Source of the DNA: an uncultured virus (IMG/VR IMGVR_UViG_3300032087_002549)
Taxonomy: Duplodnaviria > Heunggongvirae > Uroviricota > Caudoviricetes > Crassvirales
IMG/VR virus record: IMGVR_UViG_3300032087_002549
DNA: 20,000 bases
Reading direction: 5' to 3' (one strand)
Shown here: in pieces, positions 228-19,527 of the stretch
Layout of the letters: each line of letters begins with the position of its first letter
How positions within the stretch are numbered: the first letter of the stretch is position 1
Program-made: the position numbers and the translations under genes
The notes under the pieces: generated by a model
Database searches by the model: none
Told to the model about the DNA's origin: nothing
The model's input: only the letters and a program-made list of their open reading frames with translations

Positions 228-360
228 AAAATTTAAAAATGATGTACTGTTTAAAGTCTCAGTAGACGTTAACGGTAAGCAAGAATATAATTTTATGGAA
301 AAAAATTATGATCAGCTATGCGATAAGCTAACTGATGTTATGATACGAGAAACTTTATGA
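220..360 (+). CDS. hypothetical protein (46 aa, MSRKFKNDVLF...)
   Basis: ATG at 220 overlaps the ligase end and its stop overlaps the next ATG (ATGA at 357). The start at 136 in the ORF track lies inside the ligase. Confidence 0.6.
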   Translation: MSRKFKNDVLFKVSVDVNGKQEYNFMEKNYDQLCDKLTDVMIRETL

Positions 361-890
361 ATATATTTTATTTACATAAAGATCCTTATAAAGCTGCACA
401 GATACAATACAATAAGCATGTGGTTAAAATGATCTTAGAATCAGCCCAGATGCTTTGTACTGCGCATCATCATTATAACAACGGAGATAATGTACCTTAT
501 AAAAAAGCACATTACAACCATCCGTCAACCATATGGTGTAGACAAAACAAAAACCATTATAGATGGTTATACAATCATATGATAGGTTTAGGCCAAGAGT
601 ATAAAGCTAGATATGGTAAAGAACATCTTACAATAACTAAATGTAGATTACCATTATTTAAATATCCTGTTGGTATGCCAGACGGTAAGTTTAAACAACC
701 TCCACAGGCTATGCCTGATCAGTTCAAGCGTGATTGTGCTATACACGCATACTGGTTATACTACGTGTATGACAAAAAACATATAGCGCATAACAAAGAA
801 TCATTATATGATACTAAATACATTAAAGATAATTTTGGTTACAGCGACGATTTATCATGCTACACCGGAGCAGACGGACAGCACTCCTGA
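357..890 (+). CDS. pyrimidine-dimer DNA glycosylase / endonuclease V-like protein
   Basis: MNIFYL..DP..AAQ....KHVVKMILESAQMLCTAH, YK..H.NHPSTIW.R, EY..RYGK.H, PPQAMP: motifs of the phage family usually annotated as DenV-like. Activity is inferred. Confidence 0.7.
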   Translation: MNIFYLHKDPYKAAQIQYNKHVVKMILESAQMLCTAHHHYNNGDNVPYKKAHYNHPSTIWCRQNKNHYRWLYNHMIGLGQEYKARYGKEHLTITKCRLPLFKYPVGMPDGKFKQPPQAMPDQFKRDCAIHAYWLYYVYDKKHIAHNKESLYDTKYIKDNFGYSDDLSCYTGADGQHS

Positions 891-4369: not shown

Positions 4370-6100
4370 ATGCAAGTAGAAGATAAAGAGATCAATGGAT
4401 TTTTGATTGATGAGTTCAATCAATACAAGCTTGACGTAGGTAAAACACAGGGGATTTGTCCTCTGTGTTCCCACGACAGGAAACCCAAAAATCAAAAGGC
4501 CAAATGTGCGTCTTATGATTGGGAACGTGGTCTCGGTACTTGCCACAACTGTAATACAACTTATCAACTACATACTTACAAACGTAAGGGAGCTAGTGAA
4601 CGTGAATACGTACGTCCTAGTTTTTCAACTAAGACTCATGAAACTCCCAGTAGTAAAGTTATAGAATGGTTTAAGTCCAGAGGAATATCTCAGGATACTT
4701 TAGAAGCATTAAATGTTTCTGAAGGTCCTGAGTTTATGCCTCAAACTGGTAAAACTGAGAACACAATTAAGTTCAATTATTTTATAGGTAACCAACTAAT
4801 AAATATTAAATACCGTGACGGCGCTAAAAACTTTAAATTATATAAAGGTGCTGAAAAAGTATTTTATAATATTAATAGTATTGTTGGTCATACAACCTGT
4901 GTAATAGTTGAAGGCGAAATAGATGTATTATCATTACATGAAGCTGGTATAAGAAATGTTATATCAGTTCCAAATGGTGCTACGTTAAATCACAATAACC
5001 TAGATTACTTAGATAACTGTATAGATTATTTTGAAGATAAAGAAAAAATAATACTAGCTGTAGATGCTGATGAACCTGGTACTATGTTAAGACAAGAGTT
5101 TATACGTAGGCTTGGTGCTGAAAACTGTTATTTAGTTGATTTTAATGATTGTAAAGACGCAAACGAATACTTAATAAAATATGGCAGCAACGAGCTTGCT
5201 AATGCTATACACAGCGCAATACAAGTTCCGCTGGAAAATGTTACAACACTTAAAAACGTAGAAAATGATCTTAAAGACTTTGTTAAAAATGGTTTTAAAC
5301 CTGGCTACCAAGTTGGGCTCAAAAATTTCGACGAAGTATTCAGCACTTATACTGGACAGTTTATTACTGTTACTGGTATCCCTAGTAGTGGGAAGTCTGA
5401 TTTTGTTGATCAAATGGTTGTAGGGTATAATAAAATGTACGGTTGGAAGACTGCTTTTGCTAGTCCAGAAAACGCGCCTATTTATTTACATGCCCATAAA
5501 CTTATGCGTAAAACGTGGGGTGATATGCCTTCACCTAGTGATATTGGTAGTGGTAAATGGAAAGAAGTTTCTGACCACGTTAACGATAACTATTATTTCA
5601 TAGATATGGATAAATATAGTTTAGAATCAGTATTACGTAAAGGTGCAGAGCTAGTTAAACGTAAAGGTATTAAATGCCTTGTGATAGATCCTTATAATAA
5701 GGTCAGAGATACAAATGCAGTTTCAGATGATGTTAATAGATATACTATGGACTACTTAGCTAAGATTGAGCAGTTCTGTAAAAAGTATGATGTTTTAACG
5801 TTTATAGTAGCACATCCAACTAAAATGTATAAAGGCCAAGACGGTAGAATGGAAGAACCAACTATGTATAACATAAAAGGCGGTGGTGAATGGTATGATG
5901 CTAGTTATCACGGTTTATTAGTACATAGAGATTATGAAGCCAAAACTACTAAAGTAAAAGTACTTAAAGTTAAGTTTCAAAACCTAGGTGAAAACGGCGC
6001 TGAGGCGCATTTTACATGGGAGCGCAGATCAGGATCATTTGTGCCACAAGTTAACGTATTAGACGAAAACAAAGATGACAGCAGCCTTCCGTGGGAATAA
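4370..6100 (+). CDS. DNA primase-helicase (T7 gp4 / Twinkle-like)
   Basis: Zn finger CPLC...CHNC, NIKYR, TOPRIM VIVEGEIDVLS and AVDADEPG, KDANE, Walker A GIPSSGKS, Walker B LVIDP, IVAHP. Confidence 0.93.
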   Translation: MQVEDKEINGFLIDEFNQYKLDVGKTQGICPLCSHDRKPKNQKAKCASYDWERGLGTCHNCNTTYQLHTYKRKGASEREYVRPSFSTKTHETPSSKVIEWFKSRGISQDTLEALNVSEGPEFMPQTGKTENTIKFNYFIGNQLINIKYRDGAKNFKLYKGAEKVFYNINSIVGHTTCVIVEGEIDVLSLHEAGIRNVISVPNGATLNHNNLDYLDNCIDYFEDKEKIILAVDADEPGTMLRQEFIRRLGAENCYLVDFNDCKDANEYLIKYGSNELANAIHSAIQVPLENVTTLKNVENDLKDFVKNGFKPGYQVGLKNFDEVFSTYTGQFITVTGIPSSGKSDFVDQMVVGYNKMYGWKTAFASPENAPIYLHAHKLMRKTWGDMPSPSDIGSGKWKEVSDHVNDNYYFIDMDKYSLESVLRKGAELVKRKGIKCLVIDPYNKVRDTNAVSDDVNRYTMDYLAKIEQFCKKYDVLTFIVAHPTKMYKGQDGRMEEPTMYNIKGGGEWYDASYHGLLVHRDYEAKTTKVKVLKVKFQNLGENGAEAHFTWERRSGSFVPQVNVLDENKDDSSLPWE

Positions 6101-6110
6101 GAAATACAGT

Positions 6111-6353
6111 ATGGGTGAATACACCCGAACTGATAATGAAGAAAAAGCTAGACTATGGTGTCACGAAAACGATATATGTATAACACCAAGGCAAGCTAAA
6201 TGGGGAGAGCCTATTTGGTATATAGATATAGAAAAAGGTAAATATCCTAATCGTAAAAAACTAGGATCAACACCTAATGTTTATGGACCAATTAGAATAT
6301 GGGAGAAGATAAGTGAATATCAATTATATTATTACAATAAACATGGAAAATAA
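6111..6353 (+). CDS. hypothetical protein
   Basis: Open frame between helicase and the TS-family gene. ATG at 6111 is the first start after the helicase stop; the ORF track uses 6075. Confidence 0.6.
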   Translation: MGEYTRTDNEEKARLWCHENDICITPRQAKWGEPIWYIDIEKGKYPNRKKLGSTPNVYGPIRIWEKISEYQLYYYNKHGK

Positions 6354-6984
6354 ATTTTACAACGCTAATCACGCATACAATTACTTGTGGGATTATATAA
6401 TAAGAAATGGTGTTGATTTTGACAATACAAAGGCTATATTTAATTGTGGCTTTACAATTGAAAAACCATTAGAAAATTATATAACAAACGAAGATCGTAA
6501 TTGGAAGCCTGATTATGCTGAAGCCGAATGGCAATGGTACTTATCTGGCGATCCTAGTGTTAAAAAGCTAGGTGATATATATGGTAAGGTTCCACCTATA
6601 TGGGAAAAAATGGCAGATGAAAATGGTCACGTAAGAAGTAATTACGGTTGGCAATGGCAACGTAATCATCAAATAGATTATGTAGTCAATAAGCTTAAAA
6701 ACCATAAAGAAACAAGACACGCTGCTATAAGTATATACGATTGTAAAGAACACGGTACATATGAGTCTGATACTCCTTGTACATATGCTGTTCAATTTAC
6801 AATACTTAATGATAAACTAAATATGTCTGTTTATATGCGATCTAATGATCTCTGGTACGGCTTTTGTAATGATCAATACTGTTTTAGTATGTTACAAAAA
6901 CTTGTTGCAGAGAGACTGTCTATGGACACAGGGTGGTATTACCATCACGCACATAACATGCATATATATAACGATAAATTATGA
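6343..6984 (+). CDS. thymidylate synthase-family enzyme, dCMP hydroxymethylase (T4 gp42)-like
   Basis: Catalytic PC (Cys codon 6778-6780), YMRSNDLWYGFCND with Asp (6871-6873) at the E. coli ThyA Asn177 position, HIY. gp42-like segments Y...E.QWY.S, P.IW...A...G...SNYGW. Confidence 0.8.
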   Translation: MENKFYNANHAYNYLWDYIIRNGVDFDNTKAIFNCGFTIEKPLENYITNEDRNWKPDYAEAEWQWYLSGDPSVKKLGDIYGKVPPIWEKMADENGHVRSNYGWQWQRNHQIDYVVNKLKNHKETRHAAISIYDCKEHGTYESDTPCTYAVQFTILNDKLNMSVYMRSNDLWYGFCNDQYCFSMLQKLVAERLSMDTGWYYHHAHNMHIYNDKL

Positions 6985-7769
6985 CATATTATATTTATCA
7001 TATTCCAGGTAAAAAAATTGGTGTTACCTGTGATCTTAATAACCGGGTCACAGTTCAGCAAGGTTATAACCCTGATGAATATGAAATACTAGAAAGCTCT
7101 ACTGATGTTGATTATATATCAACAAAAGAGAGAAAATTACAAAGAGAATATGGCTACCGGGTAGATATGGTACCATATAAAAACCTTAAACCAAAATCAA
7201 ATATGAATATAAATATAACTGAACAGACCACAACGTTTCCAGTTCCGGTGGATAAATTAAAAGGTCAATTGTTTGATAATATGGGTATGTCTTGGCAAAC
7301 TGATCACGGTAAGTTAGATATAACACCTAAAACAATAAACTGGATAATGAAAAACGTTAAAACTTCTATGTTTAATAATAATAGAAGTTATGTATATAAC
7401 AAAGCATTTGCTAGGTTCTACGAAAACAATGATGTGTTTGAAAAACCAGTAGTTAAATGCTGTAAAAAACCTTTAAAAATGTTTGAAAACATTAGACAAT
7501 GGGCTGATGAAAGAGGACTATACGATAAAGGTGATACTAAAACTCAATTAATCAAACTACAAGAAGAAATGGGTGAGCTAGCTAAAGCTACACTAGAAAA
7601 CGATAAGCCAGAAGTTATAGATGCTATTGGTGATATGGTTGTAGTATTAACTAACTTAGCACATTTAAATAATGTAAACATAGAAACGTGTATATCAGAA
7701 GCATATAACGTAATATCTAAACGTACAGGTAAAATGGTTAACGGAACATTTGTCAAAGATGCAGATTAA
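6981..7769 (+). CDS. multidomain protein: N-terminal GIY-YIG-like domain plus C-terminal MazG-like NTP pyrophosphohydrolase
   Basis: N-terminus YYIYHI..KKIGVT.DL..R. C-terminus IRQWADERGL...Q..KLQEEMGELA......EVIDAIGDMVVVL...AY..I..R.GKMVNGTFVK (EExxE...D motif). Confidence 0.75.
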   Translation: MTYYIYHIPGKKIGVTCDLNNRVTVQQGYNPDEYEILESSTDVDYISTKERKLQREYGYRVDMVPYKNLKPKSNMNINITEQTTTFPVPVDKLKGQLFDNMGMSWQTDHGKLDITPKTINWIMKNVKTSMFNNNRSYVYNKAFARFYENNDVFEKPVVKCCKKPLKMFENIRQWADERGLYDKGDTKTQLIKLQEEMGELAKATLENDKPEVIDAIGDMVVVLTNLAHLNNVNIETCISEAYNVISKRTGKMVNGTFVKDAD

Positions 7770-7983
7770 AACTAAAGATAAGATAGTACAGGCTGTACTA
7801 AGGAAGATGGATAATCGTAGCATTACTGGCCAAAAGAAATATGGCCAAACAATGTGTAACGAAATAGAAACAGGCAAGAAAGGCTTGTGTATGTTTTTAA
7901 CAGATGTACAAGAAGAGATAATGGATGCTTTATTGTATATTGAAGCTGCTAAAAAATGTATTGAAGATGAGAAGAAAGATTAG
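7759..7983 (+). CDS. small all-alpha protein, possibly MazG-like nucleotide pyrophosphatase
   Basis: RS..G.KKYG.T......L...QEEIMDALLY.E, a common small phage protein with a MazG-like EExxD helix. Confidence 0.55.
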   Translation: MQIKTKDKIVQAVLRKMDNRSITGQKKYGQTMCNEIETGKKGLCMFLTDVQEEIMDALLYIEAAKKCIEDEKKD

Positions 7984-8818: not shown

Positions 8819-9787
8819 ATGGGATTATTTGATAACAGAATAGCGTATAAACCTTTTGAGTACCCAGAGTATTATACTGAGGGTTGGTTGAAACAAGCTC
8901 AAGCGTTTTGGTTACACACAGAAATACCTATGTCAGGTGATGTAAAAGACTGGAATGAACATTTAACAAAAGAAGAAAAAAACCTAGTAGGAAATATACT
9001 ACTAGGCTTTGCTCAAACAGAATGTGCAGTGTCTGATTATTGGACACAAAAAGTTGTAGGATGGTTTCCTAAACACGAGATACAACAAATGGCAATGATG
9101 TTTGGTTCACAAGAAACTATACACGCAGTAGCATATAGTTACTTAAATGAAACTTTAGGTCTTGAGGACTTTGAAGCTTTCTTACATGAGCCAGCAACAG
9201 CAGAGAGGTTTGATAATCTAGTGGCTTATGATGGTAATGATCCTGTAGAGATCGGTAAGTCTTTAGCTGTGTTTAGTGCATTTGCTGAAGGCGTTAGTTT
9301 ATATTCTGCGTTTGCAGTTTTATATAGCTTTCAAATGAGAAACTTGTTAAAAGGTGTAGGTCAACAAATGAAATGGAGTGTAAGAGATGAATCATTACAT
9401 AGCCGCATGGGCTGTAGATTATTCAGACATATGTGTGAAGAAAAAGACTTTTTAAAAGAGTCTTGTAAACCACATATAATAGAAGCCGCGCAAGTTATGC
9501 ACGATGCTGAAATGAAATATATAGATAAGATGTTTGAAGCAGGAGATATTGAAGGAATGAAATCTTATGATTTAAAACAATTTATAAAGAAAAGAATAAA
9601 TGAAAAACTTGTGGAGCTCGGATACAAAGAGCTCTCAAAAGAATTTAAATACGACGAAGAAGCGGCAAAAGAGCTTGATTGGTTTTATCATCTTACTGGT
9701 GGTCATACCCATACTGACTTTTTTGCTATTAGGTCGACAGACTACAGTAAAGCAAATGAGGGAGAAGATTTCGAAAATATCTGGTAA
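8819..9787 (+). CDS. nrdB: class I ribonucleotide reductase beta subunit
   Basis: KPFEYP, FW..TEI....D..DW, QTE, ETIH..AY, AEGVSLYSAF, RDESLH, C-terminal DFF..R..DY. Confidence 0.95.
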   Translation: MGLFDNRIAYKPFEYPEYYTEGWLKQAQAFWLHTEIPMSGDVKDWNEHLTKEEKNLVGNILLGFAQTECAVSDYWTQKVVGWFPKHEIQQMAMMFGSQETIHAVAYSYLNETLGLEDFEAFLHEPATAERFDNLVAYDGNDPVEIGKSLAVFSAFAEGVSLYSAFAVLYSFQMRNLLKGVGQQMKWSVRDESLHSRMGCRLFRHMCEEKDFLKESCKPHIIEAAQVMHDAEMKYIDKMFEAGDIEGMKSYDLKQFIKKRINEKLVELGYKELSKEFKYDEEAAKELDWFYHLTGGHTHTDFFAIRSTDYSKANEGEDFENIW

Positions 9788-9792
9788 ATAAT

Positions 9793-11514
9793 ATGTGGAG
9801 CAATAGATGGAAAAAAGGCGAAGACTACCCAGAGTGGGCAGACGCCGATGTATATAAAAAAACAATAACAGGAGGATATTTACATAATGGAGAAACACCA
9901 AGAGAAGCGTACAGAAGAGTTGCTAGAACGGTTGCGCAAAGACTACAGAAACCAGAAATGGAAGAGACGTTTTTTACGTACATATGGAAAGGTTGGTTAT
10001 GTCTTGCGTCACCTGTACTTAGCAATACTGGTACTGACCGTGGCTTGCCTATTAGTTGCTTTGGTATCGATGTTGCTGATAGCATTTACGACATAGGTAC
10101 TAAAAACCTAGAAATGATGCTACTAGCTAAGCATGGCGGTGGTGTTGGTATTGGTCTAAACATGATAAGACCTTCTGGTGCAAATATTACAATGAATGGT
10201 ACATCAGATGGTGTTGTACCTTTCTGTAAAATATATGACTCTACAATACTAGCTACCAACCAAGGAGCTGTAAGAAGAGGTGCTGCATCAGTTAACTTAA
10301 ATATAGATCATAAAGACTGGGAAGACTGGTTAGAAATAAGAGAGCCTAAAGGTGATGTTAATAGACAATCATTAAACCTACATCAATGTACTATAATTGG
10401 TGATAAGTTTATGCGTAAGCTTAGAGATGGTGATAAAGTTGCAAGACGTAAATGGGGTAAATTGCTACAAAAGCGTAAAGCAACAGGTGAACCTTATATA
10501 ATGTACAAGGGTAATATTAATAAAAATAACCCAGCTGCATACAAAGATAATGCTCTGAAAGTATTTATGACAAATATTTGTTCAGAGATAGTATTACACA
10601 CGGATGAAAACCATAGCTTCGTTTGCTGTTTATCTAGTTTAAACTTAGCTAAATACCACGAATGGAAAGACTCTAATTTAATATATGATAGCATATGGTT
10701 TTTAGACGGTGTATTAGAAGAGTTTATACAGAAAGCAAAAAATAGAAGAGGATTTGAAAACGCTGTAAGATCTGCAGAAAAAGGTAGAGCACTAGGTTTA
10801 GGTGTTTTAGGTTGGCATACATATCTACAACAAAAAGGATTTCCTTTTGAAGGATTATTAGCACAATATGAGACAAGAAGAATATTTTCACAAATTAAAA
10901 TTGAAAGCGAAAGAGCTAGTATGGCTTTGGCAGAGCAGTATGGAGAACCTCTTTGGTGTGTTGGAACTGGTTTTCGTAATACTCATTTACGTGCTATTGC
11001 TCCTACTGTTAGCAATAGTAAGCTTGCTGGTAATATTTCACCGGGTATTGAACCTTGGGCTGCTAACGTCTTTACAGACCAAAGCGCAAAAGGAACTTTC
11101 ATCCGAAAAAATCCAACTTTAATAAAAGAATTAGAAAAACATAAATTAAACAATAAAAAAACATGGGACCAAATACTGAGAGACGGAGGTTCAATACAAG
11201 GTATCAAACAATTAGAGAACGTTACTATAGGAGAACACAACGTACCTATAAAAGAAGTTTACAAAACTTTTAAAGAAATAAATCAATTAGAGTTAGTTAA
11301 TCAAGCTGGTATCAGACAGCAATATATAGATCAGTCTGTAAGTTTGAATTTAGCTTTCCCTTCACAAGCAGATCCTAAATGGATTAATAAAGTACATTTA
11401 GAAGCTTGGAAAAAAGGTATTAAAACTCTATATTATATGAGAACCGAGTCTGTATTAAGAGGTGATATTGCATCTCAAGCTATGGACCCTAACTGTTTAA
11501 GTTGCGATGGATAA
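9793..11514 (+). CDS. nrdA: class I ribonucleotide reductase alpha subunit (no ATP cone)
   Basis: SPVLSN, PISCF, GGGVG, NICSEI, CCLSSLNL, RALGLG, AIAPT, DQSVSLNL, KTLYY, C-terminal CLSCDG. Confidence 0.95.
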   Translation: MWSNRWKKGEDYPEWADADVYKKTITGGYLHNGETPREAYRRVARTVAQRLQKPEMEETFFTYIWKGWLCLASPVLSNTGTDRGLPISCFGIDVADSIYDIGTKNLEMMLLAKHGGGVGIGLNMIRPSGANITMNGTSDGVVPFCKIYDSTILATNQGAVRRGAASVNLNIDHKDWEDWLEIREPKGDVNRQSLNLHQCTIIGDKFMRKLRDGDKVARRKWGKLLQKRKATGEPYIMYKGNINKNNPAAYKDNALKVFMTNICSEIVLHTDENHSFVCCLSSLNLAKYHEWKDSNLIYDSIWFLDGVLEEFIQKAKNRRGFENAVRSAEKGRALGLGVLGWHTYLQQKGFPFEGLLAQYETRRIFSQIKIESERASMALAEQYGEPLWCVGTGFRNTHLRAIAPTVSNSKLAGNISPGIEPWAANVFTDQSAKGTFIRKNPTLIKELEKHKLNNKKTWDQILRDGGSIQGIKQLENVTIGEHNVPIKEVYKTFKEINQLELVNQAGIRQQYIDQSVSLNLAFPSQADPKWINKVHLEAWKKGIKTLYYMRTESVLRGDIASQAMDPNCLSCDG

Positions 11515-12334
11515 TATAACAATAAAACAAATACTAGATCCAGTCGATCCTAAGAGGTTCTGGCTGAACTATTGGGGTAAAAAACATTTAGTTATTAGAA
11601 GAAATACATTTAAAAATTTATTTAAATGGCATGATTTTACTAATTTATTAAATGGTTACCCTAGAAATTTAAACCACTTACAGATACTAGATTATGATGG
11701 TAAAGGTAATAAGTGGTGTTTAGATAAAGTAAATAAAGGTAAATTAAAATTACCTATGTTAAAGAAAAAAGAAGTATTAGACCTGTGGAGGTCTGGTAAA
11801 ACATTTGTTCTTTCAATGGCAGAATATACTAAACAAGACTTTGTTGAAATATGCGATGAGCTTGAAAGATATTTTGAAAGAGGTCAAGTTAATATATATT
11901 GCTCAAGTAAAAAAGATGCTGTTGGTTTTCCAGCGCATTGCGATAGTACAGAAAACTTTTTGTTTCATACAGAGGGTAAAGTTAAATGGACTATATATGA
12001 TAACTCTGCACCTGAAAGAAAACCTGGAAAGGTTATTGATGAGTTTGTTTTAGAAGCTGGAGATTTATTGTACATACCACAGTACAGATACCATAAAGCC
12101 GAATCACTTACGCCTAGAATATCTATAAGTATTCATTTTCCAAACAAACAAAATCAATCATTAAAAAAGTTTCAGATAACTAAAAAAGGTGTGAAAAGAG
12201 ATGGTTGGTATAACTGGATGCCCGAAGATTTATATTATGATGCTAAAGGTAATAGCACAAGAGATGTACCTAGAAAATTTAGGATGGGCGGAACACGATG
12301 GAAAGAAACGTATTTTAATAATTTAAAAAAATGA
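11507..12334 (+). CDS. JmjC/cupin-4 Fe(II)/2-oxoglutarate dioxygenase (RoxA/YcfD-like)
   Basis: F...YWGKK.LVIRR, N.Y.S.....GF.AHCD...NF....EG...W, LEAGDLLYIP...YH (HxD...H triad). Confidence 0.85.
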   Translation: MDNITIKQILDPVDPKRFWLNYWGKKHLVIRRNTFKNLFKWHDFTNLLNGYPRNLNHLQILDYDGKGNKWCLDKVNKGKLKLPMLKKKEVLDLWRSGKTFVLSMAEYTKQDFVEICDELERYFERGQVNIYCSSKKDAVGFPAHCDSTENFLFHTEGKVKWTIYDNSAPERKPGKVIDEFVLEAGDLLYIPQYRYHKAESLTPRISISIHFPNKQNQSLKKFQITKKGVKRDGWYNWMPEDLYYDAKGNSTRDVPRKFRMGGTRWKETYFNNLKK

Positions 12335-12531
12335 ATAGAGTAGCAATAGTAGAAGCTCCTCACAATATTAGAAACGCAACGTTAATGCCTAATTTGAATA
12401 AGGCGTTTTGCGCTAAATGGGTTATTGACAATGTAGAAAAGATAGAGGATATTGAAACAAAGGATTATGATTGTTTAATATTGTTTGGTGATAAAGAAAA
12501 ATTACAAAAAATAGTAAATGAAAGCAGGTAA
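12331..12531 (+). CDS. hypothetical protein (66 aa)
   Basis: Overlaps both neighbours (ATGA at 12331), consistent with translational coupling. Confidence 0.6.
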   Translation: MNRVAIVEAPHNIRNATLMPNLNKAFCAKWVIDNVEKIEDIETKDYDCLILFGDKEKLQKIVNESR

Positions 12532-12862
12532 AATATGGGGTAAAACAGAAATGATACATAAAAATGGTGTCATGGAGTTTCACCGAATAGAATTTAATAA
12601 AGGATTTAAATGCTCTGAACATGAGCATAGATTTAAATGGAACGGATTTTTTGTAGAATCCGGTAAAATGCTTGTCAGGGTATGGCAAGAAGATCAAGGT
12701 CTTGTTGATGAAACAATACTTGAAGCAGGTGATTTTACTATGGTAAAACCTGGTAAGATACATCAGTTTGAAGGTGTTGAAGATGGTGTTGCTTTTGAAT
12801 TATATTGGGCTGAGTTTAATCACGATGATATAATCAGAAGAACAGCTGGTACTAAGACATGA
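12518..12862 (+). CDS. cupin-domain protein, sugar isomerase-like
   Basis: KIWG, CSEHEH..K.N.F.VESG, L.AGD...VKPG.IHQF: cupin motifs 1 and 2, resembling small mannose-6-P / D-lyxose isomerase-type cupins. Confidence 0.7.
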   Translation: MKAGKIWGKTEMIHKNGVMEFHRIEFNKGFKCSEHEHRFKWNGFFVESGKMLVRVWQEDQGLVDETILEAGDFTMVKPGKIHQFEGVEDGVAFELYWAEFNHDDIIRRTAGTKT

Positions 12863-13497
12863 AAAACATAGCGGTAGTTATACCAGCAAGACTTAATAGT
12901 ACTAGACTCAAACACAAAATGTTAATGAAGTTCGATGATGAACCTCTAATACGTCTTGTGTTTGATAAAGTACGTATGATGGGATATGATACATTTGTAG
13001 CAACAGACAGCAAGCGTATTGCTAAACTGTTTCCTATGAAATGGTGTATACAAACAGGTAAAGCCGATAACGGTACACATAGATTATCTAAACGAGTTGT
13101 ATTAGATTTAGTAAATGGATATGATTATGTATTAAACATACAAGGTGATATGCTTGATATAAATCTAGATACAATTAAACCTATAATAAAAGCATTAAAC
13201 AAAAAAGATGTAGTATGTTTAACTGCATATACTAAAGGCGCTAAATCAGATGATGTTAAAGTTATACATCAAAATGGTAAAGCAATGTGGTTTACAAGAT
13301 CTGACATAGGTTATGGTGATAGACACTTAGGTATATATGCTTATAAACCTTATTTGTTAAAAGCATATAGAGCTATGAAAGATAAATATAAATCAGAAAA
13401 CTTAGAACAAAACAAAATATTAGGTTTATACGATATTGATGTAGTTGAAACTACATATAATGGCGTAGAAATTAACACTTATAATGATATAAAATGA
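12859..13497 (+). CDS. kdsB: CMP-Kdo synthetase (3-deoxy-manno-octulosonate cytidylyltransferase)
   Basis: VIPARLNSTRL..K.L, VATD, NGT.R, NIQGD, VKV.......A.WFTR, HLGIYAY, E.LEQ. Confidence 0.9.
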   Translation: MKNIAVVIPARLNSTRLKHKMLMKFDDEPLIRLVFDKVRMMGYDTFVATDSKRIAKLFPMKWCIQTGKADNGTHRLSKRVVLDLVNGYDYVLNIQGDMLDINLDTIKPIIKALNKKDVVCLTAYTKGAKSDDVKVIHQNGKAMWFTRSDIGYGDRHLGIYAYKPYLLKAYRAMKDKYKSENLEQNKILGLYDIDVVETTYNGVEINTYNDIK

Positions 13498-14120
13498 AAT
13501 ATGCAGAAAAATACAAAGCACTACACGAAGGTGCTGAATATAAAATAAAATATCCAGACGGCGAATGGAGAGTAAAAAAAGGTAACTATGGTAATGGTGC
13601 AGGTTTTAAAACTGTACTAAAACCTGTTAAAAAGTGGGTTGATGAAAACCCTGGCACAATGTTATTAGATTATGGTTGTGGATCTGGTATGGTTTGGGAT
13701 AATAAAATGGCTATTTACAACGGTGAAAAATATACTAAACCAGGTAAACGTGTTCCTGAAAAATATGATGCCATGACACTTACACAGTTTCTTGGTGAAA
13801 ACTTACAGGGTTTTTACAGGTACGATCCTTTTCACCCTAAGTATTATATGAGACCACCAGATATTAAATTTGATTTAACAGTTGTTAATGATGTTATAGA
13901 GCACGTGCCATTAGAAGAGCTGCCTGCATTGTTAAGAGATATAGCTGATTTAACGTGTACTTGTGGCGCAATAGTAATGTCAATACCACAAAGCCCTTCA
14001 CACGCGCATTTTATGGACGGTGAAAATATGCACTGCACGTTAATGCCAAGAGGTGAGTGGAAAAAATTATTAAGAAAATATATACCAAAACATAAAATAA
14101 TAATAAATTTTACTCCATGA
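13494..14120 (+). CDS. class I SAM-dependent methyltransferase
   Basis: LLDYGCGSG, YDP, FDL....DVIEHVP, DGEN.H.T.....W: a small-molecule or sugar-type MTase pattern. No DPPY/NPPY or PC motif of DNA MTases. Confidence 0.85.
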   Translation: MKYAEKYKALHEGAEYKIKYPDGEWRVKKGNYGNGAGFKTVLKPVKKWVDENPGTMLLDYGCGSGMVWDNKMAIYNGEKYTKPGKRVPEKYDAMTLTQFLGENLQGFYRYDPFHPKYYMRPPDIKFDLTVVNDVIEHVPLEELPALLRDIADLTCTCGAIVMSIPQSPSHAHFMDGENMHCTLMPRGEWKKLLRKYIPKHKIIINFTP

Positions 14121-14869
14121 AAAAACCGATATTAATAGCTGGTCCGTGTAGTCTAGAAGGTAGAATACAAGCTCATGAAATATCTAACAAATGTCAAGAG
14201 CTAGCGGACAAATATGGCTTTGACTATTATTTCAAAGCTTCATTTGACAAGGCTAATAGAACGTCTGTAAACTCTAAACGAGGTATTGGTATAGACAAAG
14301 CTATAGATATATTTGCTGAGTTGAAAGATTTAGATAGTTGTAAGATTACAACAGATATACATGAGCCTTGGCAAGCAGATAGGTTAGCTGACGTTGTAGA
14401 CATTATACAAATACCAGCTTATTTATGTAGACAAACTGATTTATTAGTTGCTGCAGGTAATACGTTTAGAAATATTAATATTAAAAAAGGACAGTTTATA
14501 AATGGTAGTAATATGGTGCATGCTGTTAATAAAGTTAAAAGTACAGGTAATAATAATATTATGCTAACTGAAAGAGGTAGTATGTTTGGTATGGGTGATC
14601 TTGTTGTAGATTTTAGACAGATCGTAGATATGAAAGAGTTAGGTGTACCAGTTATAATGGACTGCACCCACTCAACACAAAGACCTAATTCAGGTAGCAC
14701 AACGGCTGGTCAACCACGCTATGCTATACACATTGCAAAAGCTGCGAAAGCAGTTGGCGTTGATGGTTACTTTTTTGAAGTACACGAAAATCCTAGCGCT
14801 GCATGGAGTGACGGGTCTAATATGATTAAGTTAGATAAATTTGAAGAAATATTAAAACAATTAGTATGA
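14117..14869 (+). CDS. kdsA: Kdo-8-phosphate synthase (metal-dependent type)
   Basis: IAGPCSLE, FKASFDKANRTS...RG.G, TDIHE, QIPAYLCRQTDLL, NIKKGQF, TERG, D.THS.Q.P, FFEVH..P..A.SDG. Confidence 0.95.
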   Translation: MKKPILIAGPCSLEGRIQAHEISNKCQELADKYGFDYYFKASFDKANRTSVNSKRGIGIDKAIDIFAELKDLDSCKITTDIHEPWQADRLADVVDIIQIPAYLCRQTDLLVAAGNTFRNINIKKGQFINGSNMVHAVNKVKSTGNNNIMLTERGSMFGMGDLVVDFRQIVDMKELGVPVIMDCTHSTQRPNSGSTTAGQPRYAIHIAKAAKAVGVDGYFFEVHENPSAAWSDGSNMIKLDKFEEILKQLV

Positions 14870-15516
14870 GAGTATTTATAGGGCATGATAGCAGATACCC
14901 AGACGCTACTAAAGCATGCTACAATTCGATTAAAGCATATAACAAAAACATTAAAGTAATACCTTTATATAAACATAAGTTAATAAACAAAGGTGTGTAT
15001 GGTAGAAAAGATATACAAGGTGAATCAACAGAGTTTTCATTTACTAGGTTTTATGTGCCACTTATGTCTGCCTACAAAGGTGTGTCTATGTTTTGTGATA
15101 ATGACTTTATATTTAGAGATGATGTTGCTAAAATTTTTAAACAACTAAACGATAGAGATTTAGTAGCTTGTGTTAAGCATAAGTATTATGAATCAAAATC
15201 TACCAAAATGGACGGCATTGTAAATAAAGCGTATCCAAGAAAAAACTGGAGTTCATTAATGGTTTTTAATAATGAAAAGTTAAAAGATATTTTAACAAAA
15301 GAATATTTAGACAATGCTAGCGCTGCGGATTTACACCAATTAGCTTGGGCTGAAAACAAAATAAGTGAGATTGATAAAATATGGAATCATTTAGTTGGAG
15401 AACAAGATGGTTCTAGTAACGCTAAGGGTATACACTTTACAAATGGTGGACCTTGGTTTAAAGAGTATAAAGATTGTGAATTTGCAAATGAATGGAGAAA
15501 GATATTAGGAAAATAG
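14866..15516 (+). CDS. GT-A glycosyltransferase, CDI/GT8-like
   Basis: VFIG.D.R, STEFSFTRF.VP, F.DND (DxD), KMDG.....YPRKNWSSLM, LHQ..W, WN.LVG, IHFTNGGPWF. Confidence 0.85.
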   Translation: MRVFIGHDSRYPDATKACYNSIKAYNKNIKVIPLYKHKLINKGVYGRKDIQGESTEFSFTRFYVPLMSAYKGVSMFCDNDFIFRDDVAKIFKQLNDRDLVACVKHKYYESKSTKMDGIVNKAYPRKNWSSLMVFNNEKLKDILTKEYLDNASAADLHQLAWAENKISEIDKIWNHLVGEQDGSSNAKGIHFTNGGPWFKEYKDCEFANEWRKILGK

Positions 15517-16319
15517 TAAAAGATAAATCAGTTATATTTGTTGGTAATTCTGTAGAAATAATGAAGCATGAACATGCTAAATTTATAGAAAGCCACGATA
15601 TAGTTGTTAAGTTTGGTAGAGCATTAGAAGCTACATCATTACAAGAAAAATCACTAAGCGAAAGAGTTGATGTATGGGTTACTGGTCAGTTTAGATCTCA
15701 TGCATTTAGAAAAATGAAAGATCATTTTAAACCTGGTGGTAAGTTTGAAAATACACATATATTACTAAATAGATCAAGAGGTAACTTTCATTTAAAAGAG
15801 TTTGTTATTGAAAAACATATGTGTCCTCATTTAATAAAATATGGTTATCAAGAAATGTATAGTGATAAAGAAATTATTGATACTATGAAAGTTTTTGATA
15901 AAGATATTATAGGTACTGATCTTAGACCATCAAGTGGTTTTCTAACTATATTGTGGTTTATAGAAAAAGTTAAAACATATAAAAGCTTATCATTGATAGG
16001 CTTTGATTTCTTTACAAAATCAACACCAGCTAAAAGAGTTGGATATAATAAAAAATCTAAAAAATCAAACATAAGCGCACACGATCCACATAGCTGGCAT
16101 TTACCTATATATTTAAGGGCAGCAAGTGCTCATGATACTTATCTCGAAGAACAATTTGTTTCTTGGTTAACAAGAACAAATCAAGTTACTTGGCATATAT
16201 TAAGTGATTTAAAAAAGAGAAGTATTAAGTATACAGGCTGGGCAAAGAACTTACCAATGATAATAACAGCCTCTAATGAAAGAACTAAATATTACAAATC
16301 AAGGGTTAAAACTACTTAG
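15492..16319 (+). CDS. GT29 (sialyltransferase-like) glycosyltransferase, candidate CMP-Kdo transferase
   Basis: L-motif-like VIFVGNS.........FIESHDIVVKF, S-motif-like RPSSGFLTI.........L.LIGFDFF, VS-like HDTYLE (HxxxxE). Confidence 0.75.
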   Translation: MEKDIRKIVKDKSVIFVGNSVEIMKHEHAKFIESHDIVVKFGRALEATSLQEKSLSERVDVWVTGQFRSHAFRKMKDHFKPGGKFENTHILLNRSRGNFHLKEFVIEKHMCPHLIKYGYQEMYSDKEIIDTMKVFDKDIIGTDLRPSSGFLTILWFIEKVKTYKSLSLIGFDFFTKSTPAKRVGYNKKSKKSNISAHDPHSWHLPIYLRAASAHDTYLEEQFVSWLTRTNQVTWHILSDLKKRSIKYTGWAKNLPMIITASNERTKYYKSRVKTT

Positions 16320-19113: not shown

Positions 19114-19527
19114 TTAAAATTTACTTGCATTATTAATTTCATTAATGGCTTCTTGAATATCGTTTAAATCTGCTGGTAGCATTAAATCTAAACCAGCTTT
19201 AAAAACAGTTTCTTTTATACCGTCTTTAAATATTATTAACGTGGGTGCCATACGAACCCTGTATTTCTTTTTTGCTTCAGGAGCTTTTGATATATCAACT
19301 CTATAATAAACAGCGTTTTTTATTGTTTCCCACTCAGCAAAGCAATTAGCTTCATTAAATTTAGCCCAAAACTCTACAACAATAGGTTTTGTTTCATCAT
19401 CACCAAAAGCATTGTTACTGTTTATTTTATCTTCAAAATTTGAATCATCTATCCAATATTTTTCTGGAACGTCTTGTTGTGCAAATGATATAAATGGTAT
19501 TAAAATTAAAATTAAAATGTTTTTCAT
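19114..19527 (-). CDS. secreted thioredoxin-fold protein lacking the CxxC motif
   Basis: Signal peptide MKNILILILIPFISFA, then PIVVEFWAKFN (thioredoxin has VDFWAPWC), YRVD, Y.V...PTLIIFKDG (cis-Pro loop). Confidence 0.75.
   Translation of the reverse strand: MKNILILILIPFISFAQQDVPEKYWIDDSNFEDKINSNNAFGDDETKPIVVEFWAKFNEANCFAEWETIKNAVYYRVDISKAPEAKKKYRVRMAPTLIIFKDGIKETVFKAGLDLMLPADLNDIQEAINEINNASKF

Follow-up and report, generated by a model that had tools for sequence, protein, structure and literature searches.

Deoxycytidylate (dCMP) 5-hydroxymethyltransferases belong to textbook T4 biology; the dCTPase of T4 is gp56. Within the thymidylate synthase (TS) family, exchange of Asn177 for Asp (residue positions are given in Escherichia coli ThyA numbering) switches enzymes from deoxyuridylate (dUMP) to dCMP (PMC8670742; PMC13326640). 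Hydroxymethylation has its own proposed signature of an Asp three residues before the catalytic Cys, a Ser-x-Tyr motif and no C-terminal tail to seal the active site (PMC6400193; PMC13326640), D169N marks the flavin-dependent 5-hydroxy-dCMP synthases (PMC13326640), and the ribose preference of the cytidylate (CMP) hydroxymethylase MilA rests on Ala176 and Lys133, positions at which enzymes with deoxyribose substrates carry Ser and Arg (PMC5175136). In the MetaGPA study (eLife 2021, PMC8670742), the top domain marker of cytosine-modified virome contigs was the TS homologue that carries Asp177 together with an altered position 147, and it co-occurred with PF01503 and the DNA ligase domain PF14743. 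Earlier publications thus already describe this class of enzymes, the residues that diagnose it and its association with cytosine modification in phages from the environment (PMC8670742, PMC6400193, PMC13326640). Here, we analyzed a TS-family gene at positions 6343-6984 of a 20,000-nucleotide stretch (the window) of an uncultured virus (IMG/VR record IMGVR_UViG_3300032087_002549). With a probability that we put at roughly three in four, the product of this gene is a minimal deoxycytidylate 5-hydroxymethyltransferase that depends on folate and is of the T4 gp42 kind, making 5-hydroxymethyl-dCMP (5hm-dCMP) for phage DNA before replication.

Active site and fold of the TS-family protein

The open reading frame (ORF) 6343-6984 begins with ATG (a further in-frame GTG lies at 6313) and encodes 213 amino acids (aa), a typical length, shared by the majority of the 120 nearest homologues listed. 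Its product, the window protein, matched the thymidylate-synthase domain of Pfam (PF00303, E = 1.8e-24), and its best sequence match among solved structures was the T4 dCMP hydroxymethylase (T4 dCH; PDB 1b49, E = 4.2e-17, HMMER), followed by MilA (3.4e-15) and E. coli ThyA (4.4e-13). Given the PF00303 and 1b49 E-values and the invariance of Asp177 among homologues (below), the TS-domain match is not due to chance. All NCBIfam ThyA equivalogs scored far under their cut-offs (e.g., 72 vs 327 bits). PHROGs names the family “thymidylate synthase,” and the JGI names of close homologues are likewise thymidylate synthase.

To compare active sites, nine reference proteins were aligned: E. coli ThyA (NC_000913), RB69 td, T4 gp42, RB69 gp48 (5-hydroxy-dCMP), SPO1 gp29 (5hm-dUMP), both TS homologues of Bacteroides phage BF486P2, and a single TS homologue from each of two further phages, of Agathobaculum and of Acinetobacter. 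The window protein and T4 gp42 were identical at 17/17 compared active-site positions (E58, W80, Y94, R126, D143, C146, T147, M165, R166, S167, N168, D169, G173, N176, D177, H207, Y209), and residues 165-177 of the window protein read MRSNDLWYGFCND. Asp177 (T4 Asp179) aligned on Asn177 of E. coli ThyA, a position that is Asn in ThyA, RB69 td and SPO1 gp29 alike. The catalytic Cys146 (T4 Cys148) aligned as well and was invariant across a 74-sequence alignment, with Asp143 three residues before it (D-T-P-C) and S99-N-Y101 also present. Where ThyA has Asn177, Leu143, His147 and a C-terminal tail, the window protein has Asp, Asp, Thr and no such tail: 4 residues follow its H-x-Y, whereas E. coli ThyA continues for 55 and T4 gp42 for 28. 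Asp169 was retained, so the D169N exchange of 5-hydroxy-dCMP synthases is absent, and the equivalents of MilA Ala176/Lys133 were Ser167/Arg126. Sequences shorter than 195 aa were excluded from homologue counts (1/120 close homologues and 33/150 representatives of 50%-identity clusters). Asp177 and Asp169 were both found in 119/119 close homologues and 117/117 full-length representatives (236/236), and an Asp three before the Cys in 119/119 and 115/117, respectively. These comparisons support assignment of the window protein to the dCMP-modifying type and not to the thymidylate synthases, and its residues support a hydroxymethyl rather than a methyl or hydroxy product; it is from them that we infer both substrate and product.

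A preliminary description of the window, made from its sequence, had already pointed to an Asp at the ThyA Asn177 position and to a protein that stops just after HIY without the ThyA extension, and alignment with E. coli ThyA bears out both observations. Each of the T4 gp42 segments that it had quoted (E..WY.S, P.IW...SNYGW, CT..VQ, RSND..FGF.ND) can be seen when HMMER aligns the window protein with 1b49. Its assignment to a dCMP-modifying type agrees with our results, which narrow its three product options (5-hydroxymethyl, 5-methyl or 5-hydroxy dCMP) to the hydroxymethyl one on the strength of the residues, and its expectation that automated pipelines would label the gene thymidylate synthase is matched by the PHROGs and JGI names.

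An AlphaFold2 model of the window protein, built from the 74-sequence alignment, was of high confidence (predicted local distance difference test [pLDDT] 97.0, predicted template modeling score [pTM] 0.93). Foldseek placed MilA (template modeling score [TM] 0.89-0.91) and T4 dCH as its best matches, ahead of true thymidylate synthases, with a probability of 1.00 to MilA, T4 dCH and ThyA structures. In a quick maximum-likelihood tree (IQ-TREE, 83 rows) with poorly supported deep forks, the window protein fell in a 22-row clade (Shimodaira-Hasegawa approximate likelihood ratio test [SH-aLRT] 99) with a Bacteroides phage protein as sister. In this phylogeny with ThyA and T4 gp42, of the kind that the preliminary description had called for, the window protein lay apart both from ThyA and from the gp42 clade. 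Because of this separation, function was deduced from shared residues and not from orthology, and the window protein is best filed as T4 dCH-like in its predicted working, with all defining residues, but not as a gp42 orthologue.

Gene neighborhood and proposed pathway

The gene lies in a replication and nucleotide-metabolism string of a window with 32.7% G+C. IMG/VR yielded 524 relatives, and counts out of 80 loci refer to the best 80 of these 524. The features of this string were as follows:

3-227, + strand: DNA ligase gene, end only (PF14743)
Between the ligase and the primase/helicase, + strand: sigma-like factor, then Erf annealing protein and exonuclease (Pfam and PHROGs scans)
4370..6100, + strand: primase/helicase with Toprim and DnaB-like domains (PHROG 239, 7.8e-82), upstream neighbor in the replication module
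6075..6353, + strand: small ORF bridging primase/helicase and TS homologue, with a homologue in 51/80 loci and no Pfam or PHROG match
6343..6984, + strand: TS-fold ORF, predicted deoxycytidylate 5-hydroxymethyltransferase (213 aa; PF00303; T4 dCH as best PDB match)
6981..7769, + strand: MazG fusion protein (PF01503, 6.5e-7; PF03819, 9e-4)
7750..7983, + strand: small conserved ORF, with a homologue in 77/80 loci, matches only to PHROGs of unknown function and no Pfam match at E ≤ 0.05
Between 7983 and 8819, + strand: DUF1064 nuclease, part of the replication/nucleotide string
8819-9787, + strand: class I ribonucleotide reductase (RNR) small subunit (PF00268, 1.3e-57; 75/80 loci)
9793-11514, + strand: class I RNR large subunit (PF02867, 1.2e-91; 69/80 loci)

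The stop codon of the TS homologue (TGA) overlaps the ATG of the MazG fusion (ATGA at 6981-6984), and the fusion adjoins the TS homologue downstream in 79/80 loci; this conserved, translationally coupled MazG-like pyrophosphatase speaks for cytosine replacement. Residues ∼165-262 of the fusion form a MazG/PRA-PH-like all-alpha nucleoside triphosphate (NTP) pyrophosphatase, and PHROG 1992 and 715 (“MazG-like pyrophosphatase”) matched the protein at 4e-33 and 1e-30, which makes the MazG domain a candidate dCTPase. No Pfam family matched residues 1 to ∼160 (window 6981-7460). The fused architecture is itself conserved, the PHROG 1992 and 7855 profiles being ∼290 positions long. Deoxynucleoside diphosphates are supplied by the RNR within the same operon-like string. 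Elsewhere in the window, a 177-aa protein at 357-890 (+ strand) matched PHROG 624 (“DNA binding protein,” 4.8e-47) and, weakly and below cut-off, a pyrimidine-dimer DNA glycosylase (PF03013, E = 0.0036), and a thioredoxin-fold protein with a hydrophobic N terminus (19114-19527, − strand; PF00085, 2.5e-7) adjoins an M15 endolysin module.

Further related loci were fetched via the glycosyltransferase gene downstream (see below), and in 25 of them it could be seen which gene directly precedes the MazG fusion. The short D143/T147/M165/D177 type seen in the window occupied this slot in 13/25 loci. In the other 12 it held a ThyA-like protein of 277-301 aa (two cut by the locus end) with Leu143, His147, Gln165 and a tail of 65-73 residues, yet with Asp177, as at L182 2837-3670, between primase/helicase and MazG fusion (the other loci are L151, L152, L158, L168, L169, L173, L174, L176, L181, L183 and L184). 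By its residues this long ThyA-type Asp177 protein is a predicted dCMP methylase. Since two chemistries share one slot and one MazG partner, the slot appears to be dedicated to C5 modification of dCMP for DNA, and the alternation of hydroxymethylase and methylase types within it offers a natural experiment on anti-restriction diversification.

Four CheckV-complete relatives (G002-G005) were examined, among them G002 (70,850 bp, 100% complete), which is syntenic with the window and whose TS homologue is 89% identical. Each of the four carries exactly one PF00303 gene, and no ThyX was found in any of them. Among the other genes of G002 are homologues of GroEL and GroES, as well as two for giant proteins (2886 and 1428 aa) that stayed unassigned. 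In the mechanism we propose, Cys146 would attack C6 of dCMP while Asp177 reads the N3/N4 edge of the base, and the methylene of 5,10-methylene-tetrahydrofolate would move to C5. No C-terminal tail would seal the site, and Asp143 with Ser99/Tyr101 would position a water molecule; because of this the exocyclic methylene would be hydrated instead of reduced, giving 5hm-dCMP. The coupled MazG-like pyrophosphatase most likely converts dCTP to dCMP, which would both clear away the normal nucleotide that competes and provide the hydroxymethylase with substrate, as T4 gp56 does. Host or unrecognized phage kinases would then produce 5hm-dCTP, and the host replicase, proposed here since no phage polymerase was recognizable, would build it into phage DNA.

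Several observations weigh against this reading. T4 gp42 falls in a different clade of Asp177 proteins, and two residues differ: Arg177 of T4 dCH, which binds the folate glutamate tail, corresponds to Cys175 in the window protein and T4 Arg127 to His. For the MazG domain, the sole PDB sequence match was weak (1vmg, E = 0.0012). The preliminary description had suggested a search of the rest of the genome for a deoxynucleoside monophosphate (dNMP) kinase and a DNA polymerase, and neither was recognized: DNA polymerases of family A or B were not found in the four complete relatives, the T4 gp1 dNMP kinase had no match at E ≤ 1 in these relatives or in the nearest IMG/VR record (a search run without a positive control), and for those G002 ORFs that lack a window counterpart neither PHROGs nor Pfam named a polymerase or kinase, several large proteins staying unassigned. 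With neither recognized, replication would seem to be left to the host replicase, and phosphorylation to kinases of the host or to unrecognized ones. For that reason we rate 5-hydroxymethylcytosine (5hmC) in phage DNA as likely and leave complete replacement at a lower grade. We infer the MazG substrate and the incorporation into DNA with some reserve, and with most reserve the degree of replacement. The dCMP-modifying enzyme class advanced in the preliminary description stands, but the genome-wide replacement of cytosine that it built on this class is a less secure proposal.

Rival products and the sugar cassette

Other products of a TS homologue with Asp177 have to be weighed. A thymidylate synthase becomes a dCMP methylase through Asp177 alone (Liu and Santi 1992; Hardy and Nalivaika 1992; both cited in PMC8670742), and the very same slot is filled in sister phages by an Asp177 enzyme of ThyA type, so that the window protein might be a methyltransferase making 5-methyl-dCMP, as in phage XP12 or engineered ThyA N177D. 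By comparison with the nine reference proteins, we regard this as unlikely: the window protein has Asp, not Leu, three residues before the Cys and possesses the Ser-x-Tyr, whereas the tail that would seal the site for hydride transfer is absent, the chain ending 4 residues after H-x-Y. The sister-phage enzyme is moreover a distinct, long protein with Leu143/His147, which hints that the two differ in their chemistry. Asp177 and an acidic residue 143 are likewise found in the TS homologues RB69 gp48 and DLP3 gp80, which are flavin-dependent 5-hydroxy-dCMP synthases; an enzyme of this type would feed ether-linked glycosylation, and sugar genes do lie downstream. Yet the diagnostic D169N is missing from the window protein and from every homologue counted, and the window protein retains E58, W80, G173 and Y209, all four of which RB69 gp48 lacks; RB69 gp48 was also the weakest of the nine reference matches in phmmer (4e-9), and we consider such an activity very improbable.

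Equally small is the chance we give to an enzyme of uracil nucleotides, be it a genuine thymidylate synthase or, in the manner of SPO1 gp29, a dUMP hydroxymethylase. Such an enzyme would suit an AT-rich phage that carries RNR, has no ThyX and has this as its sole TS-family gene, and it would agree with the database label, but the uracil-selecting Asn177 of ThyA, RB69 td and SPO1 gp29 is replaced by Asp, and the NCBIfam TS equivalogs all lie far below cut-off, as given above. MilA being the best structural match, a CMP ribonucleotide hydroxymethylase like MilA or BcmA, with a product destined for something other than DNA, was also considered; Ser167 and Arg at the positions of MilA Ala176/Lys133 (PMC5175136), the replication-module context and the RNR neighbors leave it barely credible. 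A minimal dCMP hydroxymethylase of the T4 gp42 kind remains the reading that we prefer.

Downstream of the RNR genes, a sugar cassette spans 11507-16319:

11507-12334, + strand: JmjC-type dioxygenase (Pfam)
12518-12862, + strand: small cupin (Pfam)
12859-13497, + strand: KdsB-like cytidylyltransferase, a CMP-sugar synthetase (best NCBIfam match, below cut-off)
13494-14120, + strand: methyltransferase (Pfam)
14117-14869, + strand: KdsA, 3-deoxy-D-manno-octulosonic acid (Kdo)-8-P synthase (above equivalog cut-offs, 325.8 vs 314 bits)
14866-15516, + strand: GT8-like protein (lead from protein atlas only)
15492-16319, + strand: sialyltransferase-like protein (atlas lead and model)

The model of the sialyltransferase-like protein was of moderate quality (pLDDT 64.5); its best matches were all GT29/GT42 sialyltransferases at TM 0.4-0.5, which may be taken as a consistent fold class and nothing more. 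Scans for co-occurrence of this gene with Asp177 TS homologues returned only the same phage group (≥49% identity), without unrelated lineages. Among 60 related loci with enough downstream sequence, the cassette was absent in 27 and present in 33; JmjC, cupin and the two transferases were found in 10/60, and KdsA and KdsB besides in 23/60. Radical-SAM and short-chain dehydrogenase (SDR) genes were added in 8 of these 23 KdsA/KdsB loci, the radical SAM/SPASM gene (L050 13855-14862) and the short-chain dehydrogenase gene (L031 6801-7400) being inserted between JmjC and cupin, which suggests further sugar tailoring. The two extra genes of these eight cassettes (c16 and c17) had been considered as KdsD and KdsC, and this was ruled out by their matches to the radical SAM/SPASM and SDR families.

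The cassette probably builds a Kdo-containing glycan on some acceptor, but it is not tied to 5hmC. Glycosylation of DNA is conceivable because a preprint reports one glycosyltransferase of a metagenomic phage by which 5hmC, within a methyltransferase/TET-type pathway, appears to receive Kdo (bioRxiv 10.1101/2023.12.21.572611). By analogy, 5hmC made before replication might be decorated with Kdo or a tailored Kdo-like ulosonic acid, with KdsA and KdsB of the phage making the sugar and the GT8-like and sialyltransferase-like enzymes at 14866-16319 transferring it. We hold this to be improbable: the cassette is missing from 27/60 loci that have the hydroxymethylase, and the glycosyltransferase pair also occurs in 12/25 loci whose slot enzyme is of the methylase type, where no hydroxyl would be left to glycosylate. 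A surface-glycan or virion(-protein) target is at least as likely. Were Kdo on 5hmC real, it would be the first pre-replicative 5hmC pathway with a phage supply of CMP-ulosonic acid and a DNA glycosyltransferase of GT29/GT42 fold.

Host, distribution and comparison with described systems

The phage was described beforehand as not T4-like and probably infecting Bacteroidota, and its nearest cultured relatives, which infect Cellulophaga, Flavobacterium, Tenacibaculum and Bacteroides, agree with this. The nearest cultured match of the primase/helicase was Cellulophaga phage phi10:1 (41.8% identity), then Tenacibaculum, Riemerella and Flavobacterium phages; for the G002 terminase it was phages of Flavobacterium, Cellulophaga, Tenacibaculum and Maribacter, and for the TS homologue Bacteroides fragilis phages. 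From these nearest cultured phages, the host would belong to the phylum Bacteroidota, class Flavobacteriia. When 8 kb of the window were compared with cultured phages by megablast, no match was obtained. Near-identical DNA was present in 14 DNA runs at no less than half of the sampled words, all of them marine, seawater or aquatic viral metagenomes, while in six RNA runs shares reached only 0.06-0.10, no evidence of expression. The protein family comprises at least 8000 members at E ≤ 1e-10. Literature searches found nothing on a hydroxymethylase in a Flavobacterium phage and, judged by title or the start of the abstract, nothing relevant on Cellulophaga phage and hydroxymethyl.

Modified cytosine is a known phage trick, and no new principle is claimed here. 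The interest lies in a family that databases label “thymidylate synthase” and that is very common in marine viral data. If the 5hmC is real, DNA modification would extend to a large, abundant group of Flavobacteriia phages, with consequences for restriction and for CRISPR in bloom-associated bacteria; some library preparations and nanopore base calling could be biased, and a minimal hydroxymethylase scaffold of 213 aa would be added to those known.

Measured against described systems, the window protein shares with T4 gp42 (PDB 1b49/1b5e, 6a9a) the TS fold, the full set of compared active-site residues, the Ser-x-Tyr and the lack of a ThyA tail. It differs in sequence (∼24% identity in structural alignment) and in length (246 aa in T4), in its partner, which is the gp56 dCTPase in T4 vs a MazG-type pyrophosphatase here, and in that a gp1-like kinase and a phage polymerase were not found in relatives of the window phage. 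Streptomyces MilA (PDB 5b6d, 5jnh), the best Foldseek match, has the Cys and the Asp143 and Asp177 equivalents in common, but it carries Ala176/Lys133 instead of Ser/Arg and is ∼100 residues longer. RB69 gp48 and DLP3 gp80 (PMC13326640) are likewise phage TS homologues with dCMP as their substrate, and they carry Asp177 and an acidic side chain at position 143; unlike the window protein, which retains Asp169, Glu58 and Trp80, they have Asn169 and bind flavin.

The closest cultured-phage protein is WAX06796.1 of Bacteroides phage BF486P2 (45.2% identity over 100% of the query), which agrees with the window protein in its short architecture and its signature residues and is annotated “deoxycytidylate 5-hydroxymethyltransferase.” BF486P2 differs in being a 53-kb phage of gut Bacteroides with another gene neighborhood, and it also encodes a dUTPase and a further TS homologue of divergent sequence. 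Its two TS homologues (L001 9168-9929 and 12001-12681) both have Asp177, are both annotated as dCMP hydroxymethyltransferases and flank the dUTPase; the first is highly divergent, without Glu58, Trp80 and Gly173 and on a long branch. A search of the literature for the name of the collection together with hydroxymethyl returned no paper on the DNA chemistry of BF486P2. The homologues singled out by MetaGPA were linked to modified cytosine by statistical association in sewage and coastal viromes. They have the same Pfam domain, Asp177 and non-His residue 147 as the window protein, and the PF01503 and DNA ligase PF14743 domains that accompany them are both present in the window.

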